A stretch of DNA of 24,000 nucleotides, taken from Colwellia sp. 1_MG-2023. GTDB lineage: Bacteria > Pseudomonadota > Gammaproteobacteria > Enterobacterales > Alteromonadaceae. The notes under the pieces were generated by a model that saw only the letters and a list, made by a program, of their open reading frames with translations, was not told the DNA's origin and searched no databases. Positions within the stretch are counted from its first letter, which is position 1. Each line of letters opens with the position of its first letter. The DNA lies in NCBI RefSeq assembly GCF_030546755.1, contig NZ_JAUOPE010000005.1, positions 8,411 to 32,410 of the forward strand, given 5' to 3'. Of the stretch, positions 2,660 through 24,000 are shown one piece after another. Made by a program: the position numbers and the translations under genes.

Positions 2660-4336
2660 ATGTACACAGCTTATTTTGGTTTAAGTGAAGCGCCATTTAC
2701 CATCGCCCCTGATCCAGCTTATCTATTTATGAGTGATCGCCATCGTGAAGCACTCGCTCACTTAAGTTATGGTTTAGGCGACAACGGAGGCTTTGTTTTG
2801 CTCACGGGCGAAGTGGGGACTGGAAAAACCACCATTAGTCGAACTGTGATGGATAAGTTGCCAGAGAATACGCAAGCCTCATTTATTCTCAATCCAACGT
2901 TATCGTGTGAAGAATTACTGGCATGTATTTGCGATAACTTAAAAATTCGTTATAAAAAAACCGGAGCTACCCTTAAATATTTAACTGATAAAATTCAAAC
3001 TAAGCTGCAAAAAAATCACCAAGAAAATATCAATACTTTATTGATTATAGACGAAGCTCAACACCTTAAACCTGAAGTGCTTGAACAATTACGTTTGTTG
3101 ACAAATTTAGAGACAAATACCAAAAAACTATTACAGGTGATATTAATAGGTCAGCCTGAATTACAGCAACTATTACAGCGTAGAGATTTAAGACAATTAG
3201 CGCAACGAATCACCGCACGCTATCATTTATTACCGTTAACAAAACAGGAATTGAGCCAATATATTCAACATCGATTATCTGTCGCTCACTGTACAAGAGC
3301 TTTATTTAATAAAGCGGCGATATCTGCTTTACACAAAATATCTAATGGTATTCCTCGAGTAATAAACTTGTTATGTGAGCGGGCTTTAGTGATTGCCTAC
3401 AGTAAAAACGATGCGGTTATCGGACGCTCTATTATTCAACAAGCCGCTGTTGAAGCTCTGGGAGATCACCAAATAAAAGCGCCAGTTTGGCATTTACCGA
3501 TGAAAATTGCCTCGTTGATATTGTTAGTTGGTATGGTTGGTTATCTCGGGTATTGGTTTGGTACGGATAAAATATCGACAACCGATGTTGTGCTAAGCAC
3601 TGTAGCTGATAGCCCAAAAAACAATGACGCTAATCAAACGATTGTTGAAAATCAACTAAATACTAACGTGGCTACAGATACTCAGCAAACAGCTACTTCT
3701 ACTGTAAATAAAGCACAACCCAATCAACTTGCTCCTCATCTTAATCTAGATAGTCCTACGATTAATCAGTCTAATAACGAAGTCGTTAATGCTGATACTG
3801 AACAATTAATAACGGACGATGCTGCTTTAGCTGCAAATATCGAACAACACGCAAAACCTAGGGTGTTAGGATACCAGCCTGAAAAAGTAACGCTAACGCA
3901 TGATAATAAAGTTATCACAAATGAGCAGTTTGATATTGTTGCTGAACCGGGGGTTTCTGAGGATGTTCTTACCCGCTTTAAAGCAGCTATTGATGAAACA
4001 AAACCAACAAATATCATAGAGAATCAACAAAACGTATCAAACCAAAATGATCATGGGTATGCAAATACTAATGACGAGATCATTGATGATGATGTTCAGC
4101 AATATCGCGCCGTTCATCAATTGCCTGTGAGATTACAAGAATCGTTACCTTCGTTACAATTTGACATGCATATCTTTGCCACTGAAGGTCAGGGATGGGT
4201 TCGCGTCAATGGTAAAGATCGCCGCGAAGGTGAGCAAATTGCTCAAGGAGTGGTACTGACTAAAATTTTCCCTCAACAAGTTTTATTAAGTTATCAACAA
4301 GAGCAGTTTACTATGCCAGCGTTATCTAGTTGGTAG
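2660..4336 (+). CDS. exeA: ExeA/GspA-type AAA ATPase fused through a TM segment and a Q/N/T-rich linker to a GspB-like (T2SSB) C-terminal domain
   Basis: N-terminus YFGLSEAPF..P.YLF.S..H.EAL..L..G, Walker A GEVGTGKTT and Walker B LLIIDEAQ are typical of ExeA (COG3267). A hydrophobic segment (IASLILLVGMVGYLGYWF) follows. The C-terminus MHIFATEGQGWVRVNGKDRREGEQIAQGVVLTKIFPQQVLLSYQQEQFTMPA matches the GspB C-terminal pattern. Confidence 0.7.
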   Translation: MYTAYFGLSEAPFTIAPDPAYLFMSDRHREALAHLSYGLGDNGGFVLLTGEVGTGKTTISRTVMDKLPENTQASFILNPTLSCEELLACICDNLKIRYKKTGATLKYLTDKIQTKLQKNHQENINTLLIIDEAQHLKPEVLEQLRLLTNLETNTKKLLQVILIGQPELQQLLQRRDLRQLAQRITARYHLLPLTKQELSQYIQHRLSVAHCTRALFNKAAISALHKISNGIPRVINLLCERALVIAYSKNDAVIGRSIIQQAAVEALGDHQIKAPVWHLPMKIASLILLVGMVGYLGYWFGTDKISTTDVVLSTVADSPKNNDANQTIVENQLNTNVATDTQQTATSTVNKAQPNQLAPHLNLDSPTINQSNNEVVNADTEQLITDDAALAANIEQHAKPRVLGYQPEKVTLTHDNKVITNEQFDIVAEPGVSEDVLTRFKAAIDETKPTNIIENQQNVSNQNDHGYANTNDEIIDDDVQQYRAVHQLPVRLQESLPSLQFDMHIFATEGQGWVRVNGKDRREGEQIAQGVVLTKIFPQQVLLSYQQEQFTMPALSSW

Positions 4337-19723: not shown

Positions 19724-19767
19724 CAATAAACTGAGCTCAAGCTTTGTTATTTTAGCTCAGTTTATTG
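19724..19767 (-). terminator. Long hairpin downstream of lpp (14-bp stem CAATAAACTGAGCT / AGCTCAGTTTATTG, 16-nt loop)
   Basis: Perfect 14-bp inverted repeat starting about 20 nt after the lpp stop. The clean T-run (TTTTT) lies on the plus-strand side, so it may act bidirectionally or mainly as an RNA stabiliser. Confidence 0.45.
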
Positions 19768-19786: not shown

Positions 19787-20026
19787 TTACTTTTTATAGC
19801 TTTTAGCAATATTATCCATACGCTGGCTGTTTTTTTCATTAGCGTCTTTTAGGGTTTTAATTGTCGCTGTATTTTTTGCTTGTTGGGCATTTAACTTAGA
19901 AATTTCCATGGTGAGTTTATCAACTTTATTAGAAAGCGTGCTCAGCTGTTGATCCATAGTGTCTGAACTTGCACAACCTGTAACTAATGCAACGAACGAT
20001 AATGAGAGTAGTGTTTTAGTTAACAT
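19787..20026 (-). CDS. lpp: Braun-type major outer-membrane (murein) lipoprotein
   Basis: Lipobox LVTGC, a coiled-coil heptad body, and a C-terminus SQRMDNIAKSYKK that parallels E. coli Lpp NQRLDNMATKYRK with a terminal Lys. A good SD (AAGGAAA) lies 7 nt upstream of the ATG. Confidence 0.8.
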   Translation of the reverse strand: MLTKTLLSLSFVALVTGCASSDTMDQQLSTLSNKVDKLTMEISKLNAQQAKNTATIKTLKDANEKNSQRMDNIAKSYKK

Positions 20027-20129: not shown

Positions 20130-20597
20130 CTATTTAGCCTTTACAATAATTTCTTCAACTTTTTCGACTAAGTTATCTATTTTTTTTTCAAGTTTTTTAT
20201 TATGCTCTAGCAGCTCTTTATTCTGTTTTCTAAGTTCTCTGTTTTTTACATTAGTGTCTGAAAAACCAACAAATTTATTAACAAATTGTGCACCAACAAA
20301 ACCTACCATACCCACGCCGATATAAAACATTGCAGCAACGATAATACGCCCTGGCAATGTGACTGGATAAAAATCACCAAAGCCGATGGTACTCGCACTC
20401 ATTTGTAGGGTCCAAAAGGCATCTTTATATGATTTGATATTACTGTGTTCAGAGGAAAATTCGTAGTGATATAAAGGAAATGAAAGTGCTGCAATTATTC
20501 CATAAAGAACAACGATGGTAATAAGTAATAAATAAAATGAGTTATAGTTTTTAACACCAAATTCATCGATGGTATAAGATTTTAATGATGGCTTCAT
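20130..20597 (-). CDS. Minimal 2-TM potassium channel (KcsA-like pore module) with C-terminal coiled coil
   Basis: TM1 (FYLLLITIVVLYGIIAALSF), pore helix plus selectivity filter FWTLQMSASTIGFGDFYP, TM2 (IIVAAMFYIGVGMVGFVGAQFV), then a K/E/L-rich heptad tail. Confidence 0.75.
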   Translation of the reverse strand: MKPSLKSYTIDEFGVKNYNSFYLLLITIVVLYGIIAALSFPLYHYEFSSEHSNIKSYKDAFWTLQMSASTIGFGDFYPVTLPGRIIVAAMFYIGVGMVGFVGAQFVNKFVGFSDTNVKNRELRKQNKELLEHNKKLEKKIDNLVEKVEEIIVKAK

Positions 20598-20610
20598 AAT
20601 AGTGGCTTTA

Positions 20611-20931
20611 TTATTTTTGGTTTACGTAGTGAATTAAATCATCCATCAATTTCTTTTTAATTTCCAGTTGTTGTTCAGGCGCTAACTGATATTTTTTACC
20701 TAAAGCAACGTAATCTTCGGCAGATAAACTCACGGTCAACCTTGGTCGCTTCGGCTTTTTATTGACTGGTAGACCTAAAATATCTCTTATTTTATCCGAA
20801 GGACTTAAGCCAACTTCTAGGGCTTCTTTTCTGATATCTAATTGAATTTTTTCATCCATATCAAACGCAACTTGCGTTGCTTTAGCCGCTTTTACGGAGG
20901 ACTGCCATTTTTCAGGTATCTTTCTACTCAC
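20611..20931 (-). CDS. 106-aa hypothetical protein with two ribbon-helix-helix-like segments (putative DNA-binding regulator); GTG start
   Basis: GTG at 20931 with GGAAG 7-8 nt upstream, and only 2 nt after the upstream gene's stop. Segment 1 is TQVAFDMDEKIQLDIRKEALEVGLSPSDKIRDILGL (beta strand, helix, G-x-S turn, helix). Segment 2 is RLTVSLSAEDYVALGKKYQLAPEQQLEIKKKLMDDL. The function is inference only. Confidence 0.5.
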   Translation of the reverse strand: MSRKIPEKWQSSVKAAKATQVAFDMDEKIQLDIRKEALEVGLSPSDKIRDILGLPVNKKPKRPRLTVSLSAEDYVALGKKYQLAPEQQLEIKKKLMDDLIHYVNQK

Positions 20932-20933
20932 AA

Positions 20934-21572
20934 TTAACTTCCCGGAAACATGTCGATAATATCAGTTGTTGGACGATATAACGTTAAAAAAACATCAGTG
21001 TCACCATCTTGCCAAACTTCTAACTCAATGCCTGCTGATTGCTCTTTATCTAACAGTTGATAAAGTTCAAATTGTTCACCGGCGTCTTTACCTTCATAAG
21101 CAGACAAACTTTCGCTACGATGATCTTTTCGGTGAAAATAACCGACGGTTGAAAAAATAGATTGTTGATATTGTTCGCTAGTCCAGCCTTGCGATAAAGC
21201 ACTATCTGTTTTACGGGTTAAAAAGGCTTGGCCAGGCTCATCAAATATTGTAGAGAATTCATCAAGATCAAATAAAGTCTCTACATCGTCATGTTGAATT
21301 TTAAGTAAAAATTTTAGGTAAGTTTTGTCATCAACATCTAACGTTAAATAAAGCTCGGTGTCATCATTGCCAGTGAGCACCCATTCAGTATCAACATGAT
21401 TTTCATATTCGTAGCTATTAACGCCAGTTACTTGAAATTGTTGATTTCTTAGGTTTTCAGGTAAAGCAAAACTGTCGGTTAAAACAATAATGTCGCCTGT
21501 TAATAAATCACTAACGTTATGAACTTGGCGGGCAGTTTCATCTTTTTTGAATATTTTTTTAAAAAAGCTCAT
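20934..21572 (-). CDS. YjfK-like protein (DUF2491-type; possibly DUF4178-related beta-rich N-domain)
   Basis: 212-aa ORF directly downstream of the yjfI/yjfJ homologues, in the same order as E. coli yjfIJK. The family assignment rests on position and general composition and has not been verified. Confidence 0.5.
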   Translation of the reverse strand: MSFFKKIFKKDETARQVHNVSDLLTGDIIVLTDSFALPENLRNQQFQVTGVNSYEYENHVDTEWVLTGNDDTELYLTLDVDDKTYLKFLLKIQHDDVETLFDLDEFSTIFDEPGQAFLTRKTDSALSQGWTSEQYQQSIFSTVGYFHRKDHRSESLSAYEGKDAGEQFELYQLLDKEQSAGIELEVWQDGDTDVFLTLYRPTTDIIDMFPGS

Positions 21573-21602
21573 GGCTATTCCAATACAATTTATTTCATAT
21601 AA

Positions 21603-21632
21603 CCGTCTACTGATAAATTATATAGCAGACGG
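21603..21632 (-). other. Imperfect stem-loop in the 83-nt gap after the PspA-like gene
   Basis: CCGTCTACTG ... TAGCAGACGG forms 6 perfect base pairs plus extension with one mismatch. On the minus strand it follows the stop of the IM30 gene. It may be a partial terminator or stabiliser. Confidence 0.3.
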
Positions 21633-21655
21633 CTAATATCTATGAACAATTAATA

Positions 21656-22345
21656 TTATTTTTGTTTTGCTTTTAAACGCGCTAATACTGAATTCGCATT
21701 ATTGTCAGTGGCGCCAATCCCGGCTTCTTTTAATTGAGCTTCTAGGGAGCTGTCTGAATTTTCAGACTCTAACACTTCAGCTGCTTTCATTTGGTCATCA
21801 AACTTTTGTTGTTTCGCTTTGATGCGCTCTAATGAATCTTTCGCGTTAAGTAACTTAGAATTACTTGACGAAAAGTTATCAGTGATGGCAGATGTGGCTT
21901 TTTGTACACTTTCCGTGGTTTTTACCATTGAAAGTTGACGCTTGTATTCTTGTACTTGGCGTTCACTCTTTTTCACTAATTCTTTTAAGCGGTTTGCATT
22001 GCCTTCAAAACTATCAAGGGCTTGCTGTTGTGTTGATAATTCACCTTCTAATGTTGAAATTTTCTCAGCTACAGCTAAAGCTAACGCTTCATCACCTTTA
22101 TCTAAGGCTTGAACCGCATAACCTTCGTGCTCAGTTATCTCACGTTTAATACGGTCAACTTCACGGCTTGATGCCATTTGTTGGGCCATAACGCCGGTTA
22201 AATCTCGTTTTGCTTTAGTTAAATGATTTTCTGCGTCACGAATTTCTTGTTCAAAAATTCTCGTCGCGTTTGCATCTACAATGGTTTCGCCAACTTCGGT
22301 TGCACCACCACGGATAGCGGTCATAATTTTTTTAAAAATGCTCAT
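21656..22345 (-). CDS. yjfJ: PspA/IM30 family protein (YjfJ-like)
   Basis: 229-aa all-helical coiled-coil ORF. N-terminal MSIFKKI...IRDAENHL and C-terminal LKEAGIGATDNNANSVLARLKAKQ parallel E. coli YjfJ (LAEAGIG...VLARL). Confidence 0.85.
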   Translation of the reverse strand: MSIFKKIMTAIRGGATEVGETIVDANATRIFEQEIRDAENHLTKAKRDLTGVMAQQMASSREVDRIKREITEHEGYAVQALDKGDEALALAVAEKISTLEGELSTQQQALDSFEGNANRLKELVKKSERQVQEYKRQLSMVKTTESVQKATSAITDNFSSSNSKLLNAKDSLERIKAKQQKFDDQMKAAEVLESENSDSSLEAQLKEAGIGATDNNANSVLARLKAKQK

Positions 22346-22371
22346 AATAATACTCCAAAAAAGGTGGTTGC

Positions 22372-22785
22372 TTAAACTAAGTAATCGCTCATGTCATCAA
22401 TCACTTCGATGGCATTGTTATTTAAAACAGCGAGTTCATGTTCGATATCATCAAACGTTGAGCCAATTGATAAAGCACCAAAAATGACATATTTATCGCC
22501 AATTTTTGAAAATGAAGAAAGCGGCATAGGGATATTCATCTCTAGCATACTTTCGTGCATCTCAGCTAAACACTCAGGTTTAACTTCTTCTGTGCCCCAT
22601 AAATAAGTGATGCATAATATTTGATCATCGGTTACTGAAACAAATACTGGTAACTCTTCACGGCCGATAACGGTAATCTGTAGTACGTCAACTTCGCCCG
22701 AAATTGGTTGACAGTCAAAAACCATCCCGGTTTCTGAGTTATCTGCCAATGCATTCAAATGGTTAGCAATTTTGTGAATATTCAT
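22372..22785 (-). CDS. yjfI: YjfI-like protein (DUF2170)
   Basis: I prefer the internal ATG at 22785 (MNIHKIANHL...) because GAGGAA lies 5-6 nt upstream and the resulting 137 aa matches YjfI size. The track start at 22842 sits inside the operator palindrome and adds 19 aa with no SD. Confidence 0.75.
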   Translation of the reverse strand: MNIHKIANHLNALADNSETGMVFDCQPISGEVDVLQITVIGREELPVFVSVTDDQILCITYLWGTEEVKPECLAEMHESMLEMNIPMPLSSFSKIGDKYVIFGALSIGSTFDDIEHELAVLNNNAIEVIDDMSDYLV

Positions 22786-22835
22786 GTTGTTCCTCATGTT
22801 TATCAAAGGGTCGTTGTAAAATGATATTAACCCGA

Positions 22836-22893
22836 CTGACATATTATGTCAGTGTTGTAAATTTAGCACTGTGACATAATATGTCAAGCAGTG
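22836..22893. promoter_or_regulatory. Twin palindromic operator-like sites TGACATA-N-TATGTCA upstream of the yjfI-like operon
   Basis: Site A at 22836-22852 is CTGACATA-T-TATGTCAG (8-bp perfect arms). Site B at 22872-22886 is TGACATA-A-TATGTCA (7-bp perfect arms), flanked by CACTG/CAGTG. The centres are 35 bp apart. Confidence 0.5.
22860..22887 (-). promoter_or_regulatory. Candidate sigma70 promoter of the yjfI-like operon (TTGACA-16 nt-TAAATT)
   Basis: The minus strand reads cTTGACAtattatgtcacagtgcTAAATTt. The -35 is a perfect TTGACA embedded in palindrome B, and the predicted start region falls in palindrome A. Confidence 0.3.
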
Positions 22894-22938
22894 AATGATA
22901 TTTATTTAAAATTATTTCATTCGTACCTAACTGAAATA

Positions 22939-24000
22939 TTATTGAGTATAAGCATTTTCAAGCCCTTGCTGGTTACGCCATGCTTTTTGATGCAGTTGAT
23001 AAATAGTATGACTGCCCAAGTAATTAATTTGAATTTCTTTTTCAATTTGATAAAAATTTTGTGAGAATTCAAAAGCACCTAATAACATAGGTAAGGTTAA
23101 CCATTGCTGTTTTACTTGAAATTTATCAAGTGCTTGTAGTCTTGCAAGAGGACTTAAACCTCGCTTAGAAGCTATTGTCCAACCCCATTCTCCAAAACTC
23201 GGCACATTGTCGTGATATTGCTGCACATCGGAGAAATCAGCGGCTTTTACAGTTTTCCCTATAGAAATAAATGCTTCTTTAGCATGATATGGGCTAGTCG
23301 ACTGTATGGCGAGTAATCCATCAGCTGAAAGTAGCTGGTTTAATCGTGCATAAAAATTTACTGAGTAAAGCTTGTTTAAATCTGGATGACTTGGGTCAGG
23401 TAAATCAACAATGATACTGTCAAAAGATTTTTGCTGTGTTAGTAAATTATCAATGGCGATAAATGCATCACTATAAATTAATTCTACGTTTGGGTGAGAA
23501 AGACTTTGTTGATTCAGCCTACTTATCTTGCGAGCAAGCGGAGCAGGTAATTTATCACTAGGTTGTTTAAACAGCTCAATCAGCTCTTGATCTAAGTCGA
23601 TTAAAGTCACGTGTTCGGGCTGCCAAGCTAGAACATCTCTTAATGCTAAGCCATCACCACCACCAATAATTAAAATATTCTCTTGTCGGGCAGAGCCAGC
23701 AAGTGCAGGAGCAACCAAATAATTATGATAAATATGTTCATCTGATGACGAAAACTGTAATCGTCCATTGAGATAAAAATTAATGATGGGCTGTTGTTCT
23801 AACCCCATTTGACGTTCAGTGAAAGTGAGTTGTTGATAACGAGTTTTATCAGTGTAAACCACATTATCTAAATACAATAAATTACTTAATTGCATTAACC
23901 AATGATTACCTTGTTGGTAAATGAAAATAATACCAACGAGTAACAAACAATGAAAACCGACTAAAAGCTTACGCCAATGTAGTTGTTGCCAATAACAAAA
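22939..24000 (-). CDS. Spermidine-synthase-like aminopropyltransferase, probably with an N-terminal membrane domain; 5' end outside the window
   Basis: ILIIGGGDGLALRDVL (SAM-binding GGGDG motif) and IIVDLPDP (D.tDP-type motif) match the SpeE family. The reading frame stays open from 23946 to the window edge (…FCYWQQLHWRKLLVGFHC-LLLVGIIF…), so the track's TTG start is probably not the real start. Confidence 0.75.
   Translation of the reverse strand, partial: FCYWQQLHWRKLLVGFHCLLLVGIIFIYQQGNHWLMQLSNLLYLDNVVYTDKTRYQQLTFTERQMGLEQQPIINFYLNGRLQFSSSDEHIYHNYLVAPALAGSARQENILIIGGGDGLALRDVLAWQPEHVTLIDLDQELIELFKQPSDKLPAPLARKISRLNQQSLSHPNVELIYSDAFIAIDNLLTQQKSFDSIIVDLPDPSHPDLNKLYSVNFYARLNQLLSADGLLAIQSTSPYHAKEAFISIGKTVKAADFSDVQQYHDNVPSFGEWGWTIASKRGLSPLARLQALDKFQVKQQWLTLPMLLGAFEFSQNFYQIEKEIQINYLGSHTIYQLHQKAWRNQQGLENAYTQ

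Follow-up and report, generated by a model that had tools for sequence, protein, structure and literature searches.

What controls a PspA operon of the YjfJ type, and does a K+ channel encoded at its end belong to it? Such operons are widespread, and the way in which they are switched on and the roles of their partner genes are almost without experimental tests. Both questions are raised by one end of a 24,000-nt stretch of Colwellia sp. 1_MG-2023 (contig NZ_JAUOPE010000005.1; the whole stretch is hereafter the window, and its positions serve as coordinates), where six minus-strand open reading frames (ORFs) at 20130-24000 encode a membrane-anchored polyamine aminopropyltransferase, a DUF2170 protein, a PspA-family protein, a 212-aa protein, a 106-aa protein with two ribbon-helix-helix (RHH) units and a small K+ channel. 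We consider it likely that the locus is an envelope-stress operon of a known class that is repressed by its own RHH protein and carries the channel as an optional effector.

The region corresponds to the distal two-thirds of the known envelope-stress operon that combines YjfI, YjfJ and a membrane spermine synthase, in a Colwelliaceae (Thalassotalea-like) version. An ORF check of the window returned gaps of exactly 26, 83, 2 and 13 nt from the DUF2170 gene to the channel gene, and the six ORFs, coordinates and spacings of a first-pass annotation, made from the sequence alone, were recovered without change; its assignments of a YjfI-like/DUF2170 protein, a YjfJ-like PspA, a K+ channel with two transmembrane (TM) helices and a spermidine-synthase-like enzyme were likewise confirmed by BLASTP and by profiles, with Pfam matches to DUF2170, PspA_IM30, Ion_trans_2 and Spermine_synth. 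In relatives, eight genes follow one another in the order lipoprotein, DUF350, 7TM-aminopropyltransferase, DUF2170, PspA, DUF4178-like, tandem-RHH and channel, the 5' end of the operon being divergent from glnE. The lipoprotein (323-336 aa, lipobox LVGC) and the DUF350 protein of the YjfL family (300 aa, 8-TM) were seen in five loci (L001, L002 and L209-L211) whose RHH proteins are 72-91% identical to that of the window, and the core from synthase to RHH is present in Colwelliaceae loci wherever the available DNA extends over that part; the closest genomes in a scan with the RHH family are those of Thalassotalea (~90% identity). Taken from the window for the part from Spermine_synth onward and from the relatives for the rest, this gene order is that of the "second major group" of CesT/Tir-PspA operons, exemplified by Shewanella oneidensis SO_3765/SO_3766 (Ravi et al., 2024, PMC11237479; mSystems 9:e00847-23). 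The supplement of that study lists the SO_3765 operon as LipoSIG+Ctha_1186, YjfL-TM, TM+Spermine_synth, CesT_Tir-DUF2170, PspA, DUF4178 and RHH, and the study itself foresees a transcription factor in the RHH protein, the product of the last gene (Ravi et al., 2024, PMC11237479). A literature search for SO_3763 to SO_3767 returned nothing relevant.

A tandem ribbon-helix-helix protein and a conserved palindrome

The 106-aa ORF is a genuine and strongly conserved gene. It has 925 homologues, which are ~80% identical across Thalassotalea, Colwellia and Cognaticolwellia and several of which also start with GTG. Clustering of the family at 50% identity gives 97 representatives, and its members are, with few exceptions, full-length (100-140 aa). 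The window protein itself had no match in Pfam, and a PDB profile search with it gave nothing relevant; among 45 family members, seven matched NikA-like (best 7.7e-6) and four RHH_1, with further matches to RHH_10, FitA-like and SeqA_N. An AlphaFold2 model based on a deeper alignment (predicted local distance difference test, pLDDT, 79.6) contains two extended-helix-helix units at residues 17-51 and 62-105, and supersedes a shallow-alignment model (pLDDT 68) that drew the first strand as a helix. The low-deviation matches found by Foldseek in the PDB were the Rv0298 antitoxin, NikA, Arc and CopG, with root-mean-square deviations of 1.0-1.5 A over 36-39 residues, all at E-values above 1 because the RHH unit is so small. 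Model and matches agree in the strand-helix-helix topology of the RHH superfamily and, together with the Pfam matches of the family, support the two RHH-like segments proposed in the first-pass annotation. In the predicted strands hydrophobic residues alternate with polar ones, the polar face being Q20/A22/D24 in strand one and R64/T66/S68 in strand two. Each strand is headed by a residue that does not vary within the family, Q20 in one and R64 in the other. The pattern R64-x-T-x-S resembles R4/T6/T8 of CopG.

A candidate target of this protein lies within the operon. In the 153-nt stretch between the synthase stop codon and the likely DUF2170 start, the best promoter-like site of the region, the putative internal promoter P2, is accompanied by two exact copies (O1 and O2) of the perfect palindrome GACATAWTATGTC, 35 bp apart from centre to centre, against 0.02 copies expected by chance in the 24-kb window. 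A search of 83 related loci (1.56 Mb) that allowed one mismatch gave 242 occurrences, all of them in two promoter regions: a pair ahead of DUF2170, present in the Colwelliaceae loci that span this gap, and a single copy between glnE and the lipoprotein gene; in L001 this single copy (4183-4195) stands 14 nt upstream of the TATAAT of P1, the operon's first promoter. The genome scan retained only Colwelliaceae among 462 species matches, and the breadth of the distribution was assessed instead from the loci of distant RHH homologues and from a metagenome scan for the palindrome pair. The pair is spaced by 34-39 bp (mostly 35-36) in Colwelliaceae genomes and by 15-40 bp in metagenome loci, and the two copies lie 2 nt apart in the GC-rich locus of Alkalilimnicola ehrlichii. 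Four distant loci (L084-L087) have the palindrome upstream of DUF2170 even with RHH proteins only ~25-37% identical to that of the window. The metagenome scan yielded at least 120 loci, and in ~95 of those listed DUF2170-pspA follows directly downstream; every locus that runs far enough downstream also has an RHH gene, the one exception being L189, which has the palindromes with DUF2170-pspA and no RHH gene within 1.7 kb. The association extends to very small clusters, such as DUF2170-PspA-RHH with the palindrome in L084, and L103, which lacks pspA and has the pair directly ahead of RHH and rhomboid genes, in that order. Neither the RHH gene nor the palindrome is found in E. coli yjfIJKLMC, the one genome used as a negative control, and a literature search for the palindrome sequence found no paper with it in this context. 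As a separate observation, a short AT-rich tandem repeat in L149 (3832-3929), on a contig without PspA genes, contains the palindrome four times (CTACTGACATATTATGTCTACTGACATAATAAAC...).

The simplest reading of these comparative data is that the 106-aa protein acts as an autorepressor occluding both promoters. It would bind GACATAWTATGTC over the -35 region of both promoters and over the start of the internal one, and so repress the operon, its own gene included. Two RHH chains per symmetric site would fit the way in which CopG and Arc bind, and a 13-bp symmetric operator overlapping the -35 hexamer is also the arrangement of CopG. The operator-like palindrome conserved at the operon promoters lends real support to the self-regulation suggested in the first pass; binding and repression by the RHH protein are predicted from comparative data. 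Identification of the palindrome as an NrdR or Zur/Fur box was considered, and retained only as a minor rival: the AT-rich symmetric layout is alike, but the sequence is different and neither nrd nor metal genes are among the targets. A candidate repressor with an exact and highly conserved operator offers a direct experimental handle on this type of operon; should the link between the two fail, the locus would be another member of a catalogued operon class.

The potassium channel and the competing explanations

The 155-aa product of the last gene matches Pfam Ion_trans_2 (E 7.4e-9; 35.8 bits against a cut-off of 22.5), has TM segments at about residues 20-42 and 83-105 followed by a heptad-rich tail, and has Lmo2059 and full-length KcsA as its best PDB sequence matches (E 1e-10 to 1e-9). 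Its two TM helices and its T-x-G-[YF]-G-D filter place it in the 2-TM KcsA type, and it is predicted to conduct K+ as a tetramer. In the short channels an N-terminal motif (Y..D.FG.KNY), a pore motif (Y.DA.W...MS..TIGFGD.YP) and a juxtamembrane motif GF(S/A)DTN(V/I)KNRELR(K/M)QN (GFSDTNVKNRELRKQN) are conserved, the filter and the juxtamembrane motif being kept in 52 homologues; three homologues that were looked up all lie within this operon type. In three short channels (L034, L056 and L069) the filter aspartate is replaced (GFGH, GFGS and GFGG), and their selectivity or stability may differ.

The RHH gene adjoins yjfI-pspA in every related locus examined; the channel proved facultative. It follows the RHH gene in 43 Colwelliaceae genomes and is absent with room to see it in 35 (among them C. 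psychrerythraea, C. piezophila, T. piscium and Litorilituus), 2 more loci being truncated; the corresponding numbers for metagenome palindrome loci with an RHH gene, drawn from the at least 120 palindrome matches, are 24, 20 and 10, so that loci with enough sequence to show a channel have one in 43/78 and 24/44 cases. Where present, the channel takes one of three architectures in the same slot, of ~155 aa with a coiled coil, of ~365 aa, or of 268 aa with an S4-like segment, and the K+ filter is found in nearly all. The long form is a 351-374-aa TTVGYGD channel of distant lineages (e.g., L085 10354-11451; L086 10352-11449), for which a weak TrkA_N match was seen in the one scanned example showing any second domain, and the 268-aa form (L156 7326-8153) combines an S4-like arginine repeat with a coiled-coil tail. 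In five loci the RHH, channel, lipoprotein and DUF350 genes follow one another on one strand, and the channel gene is internal to the operon. Such repeated recruitment or retention argues for a functional link over chance adjacency. A K+ channel (Ion_trans_2+TrkA) is also reported from the sister class of ATP-grasp PspA operons (Ravi et al., 2024, PMC11237479), and this, together with the three architectures in one slot, argues that K+ flux is functionally tied to this branch of the PspA/ESCRT-III family of membrane-repair proteins; such a tie would join membrane remodelling to membrane potential.

Several points weigh against an RHH-repressed operon with the channel as its effector. A terminator-like hairpin and a promoter-like site separate pspA from the last three genes, which leaves a single transcript unassured, and there is no clear Shine-Dalgarno sequence ahead of the channel ATG. 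Of operons that are identical in all other respects, ~45% lack the channel; it also evolves faster than its neighbour (45-92% identity, as against 73-91% for the RHH protein), and is therefore dispensable for the core function. The AlphaFold2 monomer model leaves both RHH strands unpaired (predicted template modelling score 0.42), which adds to the Foldseek E-values above 1, and the E. coli control is a single genome; moreover, a regulator encoded elsewhere could bind the palindrome. The channel might be a passenger, a small accessory gene that arrived at a variable 3' boundary of the operon, with no functional tie to PspA, RHH or polyamines. We hold this to be unlikely, even though its absence from 35/78 Colwelliaceae genomes and 20/44 metagenome loci in which it could have been seen, its divergence, the variable gene content after the RHH gene and the lack of an operator copy ahead of the channel gene would all suit it, because a passenger accounts poorly for three architectures in one slot across lineages whose RHH proteins are only ~25-35% identical, for the loci in which the channel lies between the RHH and the lipoprotein/DUF350 genes on one strand, for the conserved K+ filter and short gaps (13 nt in the window), and for the independent finding of a K+ channel inside the sister ATP-grasp operon (PMC11237479). 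It is very improbable that the RHH and channel genes are an independent pair, only added on to the PspA operon, in which the RHH protein controls or gates the channel: the 13-nt gap and the adjacency kept across distant lineages would fit, but the RHH gene is kept in all 35 channel-less genomes and the palindromes stand at the lipoprotein and yjfI promoters, not ahead of the channel.

The remaining alternative concerns the regulator, and would make the palindrome the site of a protein encoded elsewhere, leaving the RHH protein as a partner of PspA or of the channel, or as a binder of other DNA. The 7-1-7 layout TGACATA-W-TATGTCA of the palindrome resembles that of Fur-family boxes; the pair also occurs ahead of SPFH, YidC-like, NhaA, TelA and S10 peptidase genes far from any RHH gene on their contigs, L189 combines it with DUF2170-pspA in the apparent absence of an RHH gene nearby, and its perfect two-fold symmetry is not required by one asymmetric tandem-RHH chain. 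Against this, symmetry would be regained with two chains per palindrome, the targets do not make up a metal regulon, the site is nearly unchanged while Q20 and R64 are invariant, and no regulator-like gene other than the RHH gene accompanies the palindrome throughout, down to the minimal clusters L084 and L103. A foreign regulator accordingly appears quite unlikely to us.

Autorepression by the RHH protein would then set the following course of events. The hairpin after pspA would keep the DUF4178-like protein, the repressor and the channel at lower amounts than the chaperone-PspA pair; on derepression by a presumed inducing signal, PspA and the YjfI chaperone would act on the damaged inner membrane, and the KcsA-like channel, where present, would allow a K+ flow that resets or clamps the membrane potential. 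The membrane aminopropyltransferase would yield a polyamine-type product at the membrane, which may, speculatively, act on the membrane or on the channel pore. Polyamines act on the pore of Kir channels.

Companion genes, probable read-through and a possible wider regulon

Table 1. Positions of the genes and sequence elements in the window.
Feature	Position	Strand	Remark
Membrane-anchored polyamine aminopropyltransferase, C-terminal ~350 codons (7TM + Spermine_synth)	22939..24000	-	frame open to base 24000
Putative sigma-70-like internal promoter P2 (TTGACA, 16 nt spacer, TAAATT, TG extension)	22860..22887	-	10/12 matches
Operator-like perfect palindrome O1, 13 bp, GACATAWTATGTC	22873..22885	.	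overlaps -35 hexamer of P2
Operator-like perfect palindrome O2, GACATAWTATGTC	22838..22850	.	over expected transcription start of P2
YjfI/BacA-like DUF2170 protein, 137 aa	22372..22785	-	Pfam DUF2170 E 2.8e-38
PspA/IM30-family protein, YjfJ type, 229 aa	21656..22345	-	Pfam PspA_IM30 E 1.5e-40
Stem-loop in the gap between pspA and the 212-aa gene, attenuator- or terminator-like, no clear T-run	21594..21646	-	minimum free energy -20.9 kcal/mol, z -3.3
212-aa cytoplasmic protein, weakly DUF4178-like	20934..21572	-	sub-threshold Pfam match
GTG-start 106-aa protein, two RHH units in one chain, putative autorepressor	20611..20931	-	
155-aa KcsA-like 2-TM K+ channel, TIGFGD filter, C-terminal coiled-coil tail; optional last gene	20130..20597	-	
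Lpp-like coiled-coil lipoprotein, 103 nt downstream of the channel gene	19787..20026	-	Pfam LPP E 1.2e-7

The PspA-family protein matches PspA_IM30 (PF04012) with 139.6 bits (cut-off 33.9) over residues 2-228, and is nearer to E. coli YjfJ (29% identity over the full length, E 5e-27) than to canonical PspA, for which TIGR02977 gives 22 bits against a cut-off of 243; with a DUF2170 gene directly upstream it belongs to the YjfJ subgroup. An exact-sequence look-up of this protein gave no match. The longest ORF for the DUF2170 protein (22372-22842) has 156 aa and a start inside O2; the 137-aa form, whose ATG at 22785 lies behind GAGGA, agrees with the 136-141-aa genes called in relatives. DUF2170 proteins have a CesT/Tir-type chaperone fold according to the literature, and the NCBIfam BacA model matches the window protein below its cut-off (E 6.6e-14).

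The 212-aa protein, whose gene is present in 80/80 Colwelliaceae loci, had been described in the first pass as YjfK-like, a name that has to be abandoned: BLASTP against E. coli YjfK aligned only a 10-residue N-terminal FFKKIF-like stretch (E 0.16), Pfam gave no DUF2491 match, and the one resemblance is a weak match to DUF4178 (PF13785; E 0.008, 16.7 bits, below the cut-off of 25). Its positional counterparts in distant loci also match DUF4178 weakly (18.5 and 20.6 bits), and the assignment to that family rests on a profile-profile call for SO_3766 (Ravi et al., 2024, PMC11237479). PspA (MSIFKKIMTAIRG, beginning at 22345), the 212-aa protein (MSFFKKIFKKD, 21572) and E. coli YjfK (MGFFQRLFGKD, L208 6303) have in common a short amphipathic motif at the N-terminus, which could be a shared membrane- or partner-binding peptide.

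A stable hairpin stands after pspA in 76 of 82 related loci, with stems that differ and often with a T-run. Its conservation makes it probable that transcription reaches the last three genes by read-through, at reduced levels, as would fit an attenuator that keeps PspA and YjfI well above the downstream proteins; the promoter-like TTCATA-18-TATAAT that overlaps the hairpin in the window may also provide these genes with a separate weak promoter. Downstream of the channel gene no terminator-like structure was found until after the Lpp-like gene, where a hairpin stands at ~19725-19766 with 13-bp arms formed by the inverted repeat AATAAACTGAGCT...AGCTCAGTTTATT. The Lpp-like gene, which often stands directly after the RHH gene in channel-less genomes, is probably a separate unit.

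At the other end of the region, the synthase frame matches Pfam Spermine_synth (E 7.7e-31, 107.5 bits) and positions 198-521 of the 522 of NCBIfam PRK03612, where its 373 bits fall short of the cut-off of 472 because ~200 N-terminal residues lie off the window. Orthologues of 568-582 aa in relatives, and ~7 hydrophobic segments within the first 257 aa of a 580-aa orthologue, bear out the longer, membrane-embedded N-terminus that the first-pass annotation had suspected. In two distant versions of the operon (L085 2944-3420; L086 4135-4476) an S-adenosylmethionine decarboxylase gene stands ahead of the lipoprotein gene, and its product would provide the aminopropyl donor to the membrane synthase.

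The palindrome pair is not restricted to this operon. Among the at least 120 metagenome loci, ~23 have other genes directly downstream, namely genes for SPFH/Band_7 proteins (L088, L114), for ~220-aa YidC-type insertases (L129 and L174 by Pfam; L093, L168 and L190 by similarity), for NhaA (L120), TelA (L143) and an S10 peptidase (L115), and for small membrane proteins (L124, L125, L144). Their functions lie in membrane and ion homeostasis, and the operator-like site points to further membrane-related targets such as the SPFH, YidC-like, NhaA and TelA genes; Band-7 is already named as a PspA partner (Ravi et al., 2024, PMC11237479). This suggests, as a lead, a possible membrane-homeostasis regulon, provided that the contigs come from RHH-bearing genomes. 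A broader proposal, which we put forward tentatively and regard as possible rather than probable, is that the tandem-RHH protein and GACATAWTATGTC define an undescribed membrane-homeostasis regulon of marine and other Gammaproteobacteria, comprising the YjfI-PspA-polyamine operon, SPFH/band-7 proteins, a small YidC-type insertase, NhaA, TelA and a rhomboid protein, in which K+ channels of interchangeable architecture, as an optional effector, would reset the membrane potential in envelope stress and might be gated by the polyamine that the membrane synthase of the operon makes.

Comparison with known systems

The closest described system is the second-group operon, with which the locus shares an identical order from the lipoprotein to the RHH gene; in the parts of the source drawn on here, the description stops at RHH and gives no operator or regulon, whereas here and in about half of the related loci a K+ channel is added (Ravi et al., 2024, PMC11237479). 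The "third group" of ATP-grasp operons (E. coli yjfIJKLMC; Alteromonas addita AVL56_13815) shares the YjfI-YjfJ dyad, a DUF350 protein and a polyamine-linked enzyme, but has DUF2491, DUF1190 and YjfC in place of DUF4178, the Ctha_1186 lipoprotein and the spermine synthase, and lacks the RHH gene. It was by comparison with E. coli that the first-pass annotation took the yjfL/yjfM/yjfC tail to have been replaced by a DNA-binding protein and an ion channel. Nothing was replaced, because the locus represents a different, catalogued operon class whose 5' part, with the lipoprotein and DUF350 genes seen upstream of the synthase in relatives, lies beyond the window edge. The novelty that had been claimed for a PspA-family system with a dedicated K+ channel is likewise reduced, since publications already cover this class of operon with its RHH gene, and also a K+ channel linked to PspA (Ravi et al., 2024, PMC11237479); new variants are the position of a channel behind RHH in the class with a spermine synthase, and the minimal form with a coiled coil. 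The only experimentally studied relative is the bac operon of Pseudomonas aeruginosa (BacA-F), which also begins with a DUF2170 gene (BacA) followed by a PspA-family gene and in which loss of bacA raises the levels of the other Bac proteins; the portions of that study used here mention no RHH gene or channel (PMC10948618).

At the level of single proteins, the 106-aa protein resembles the repressors Arc, CopG, MetJ and NikA and the tandem RHH proteins of the TraY type in its strand-helix-helix units, and differs from Arc, CopG, MetJ and NikA in that two units are fused in one chain and that the window protein matches no Pfam RHH model. The channel shares with KcsA and Listeria Lmo2059 (LmK) the two TM helices, the pore helix, the TxGxGD filter and the helical C-terminal tail, and is set apart from both by the TIGFGD filter and by the N-terminal and juxtamembrane motifs of its own family. 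What the present work contributes beyond these known systems is a candidate operator with sharp limits, the possibility of a regulon, and a quantified linkage to K+ channels, recurrent but facultative, that includes a new minimal form of the channel.

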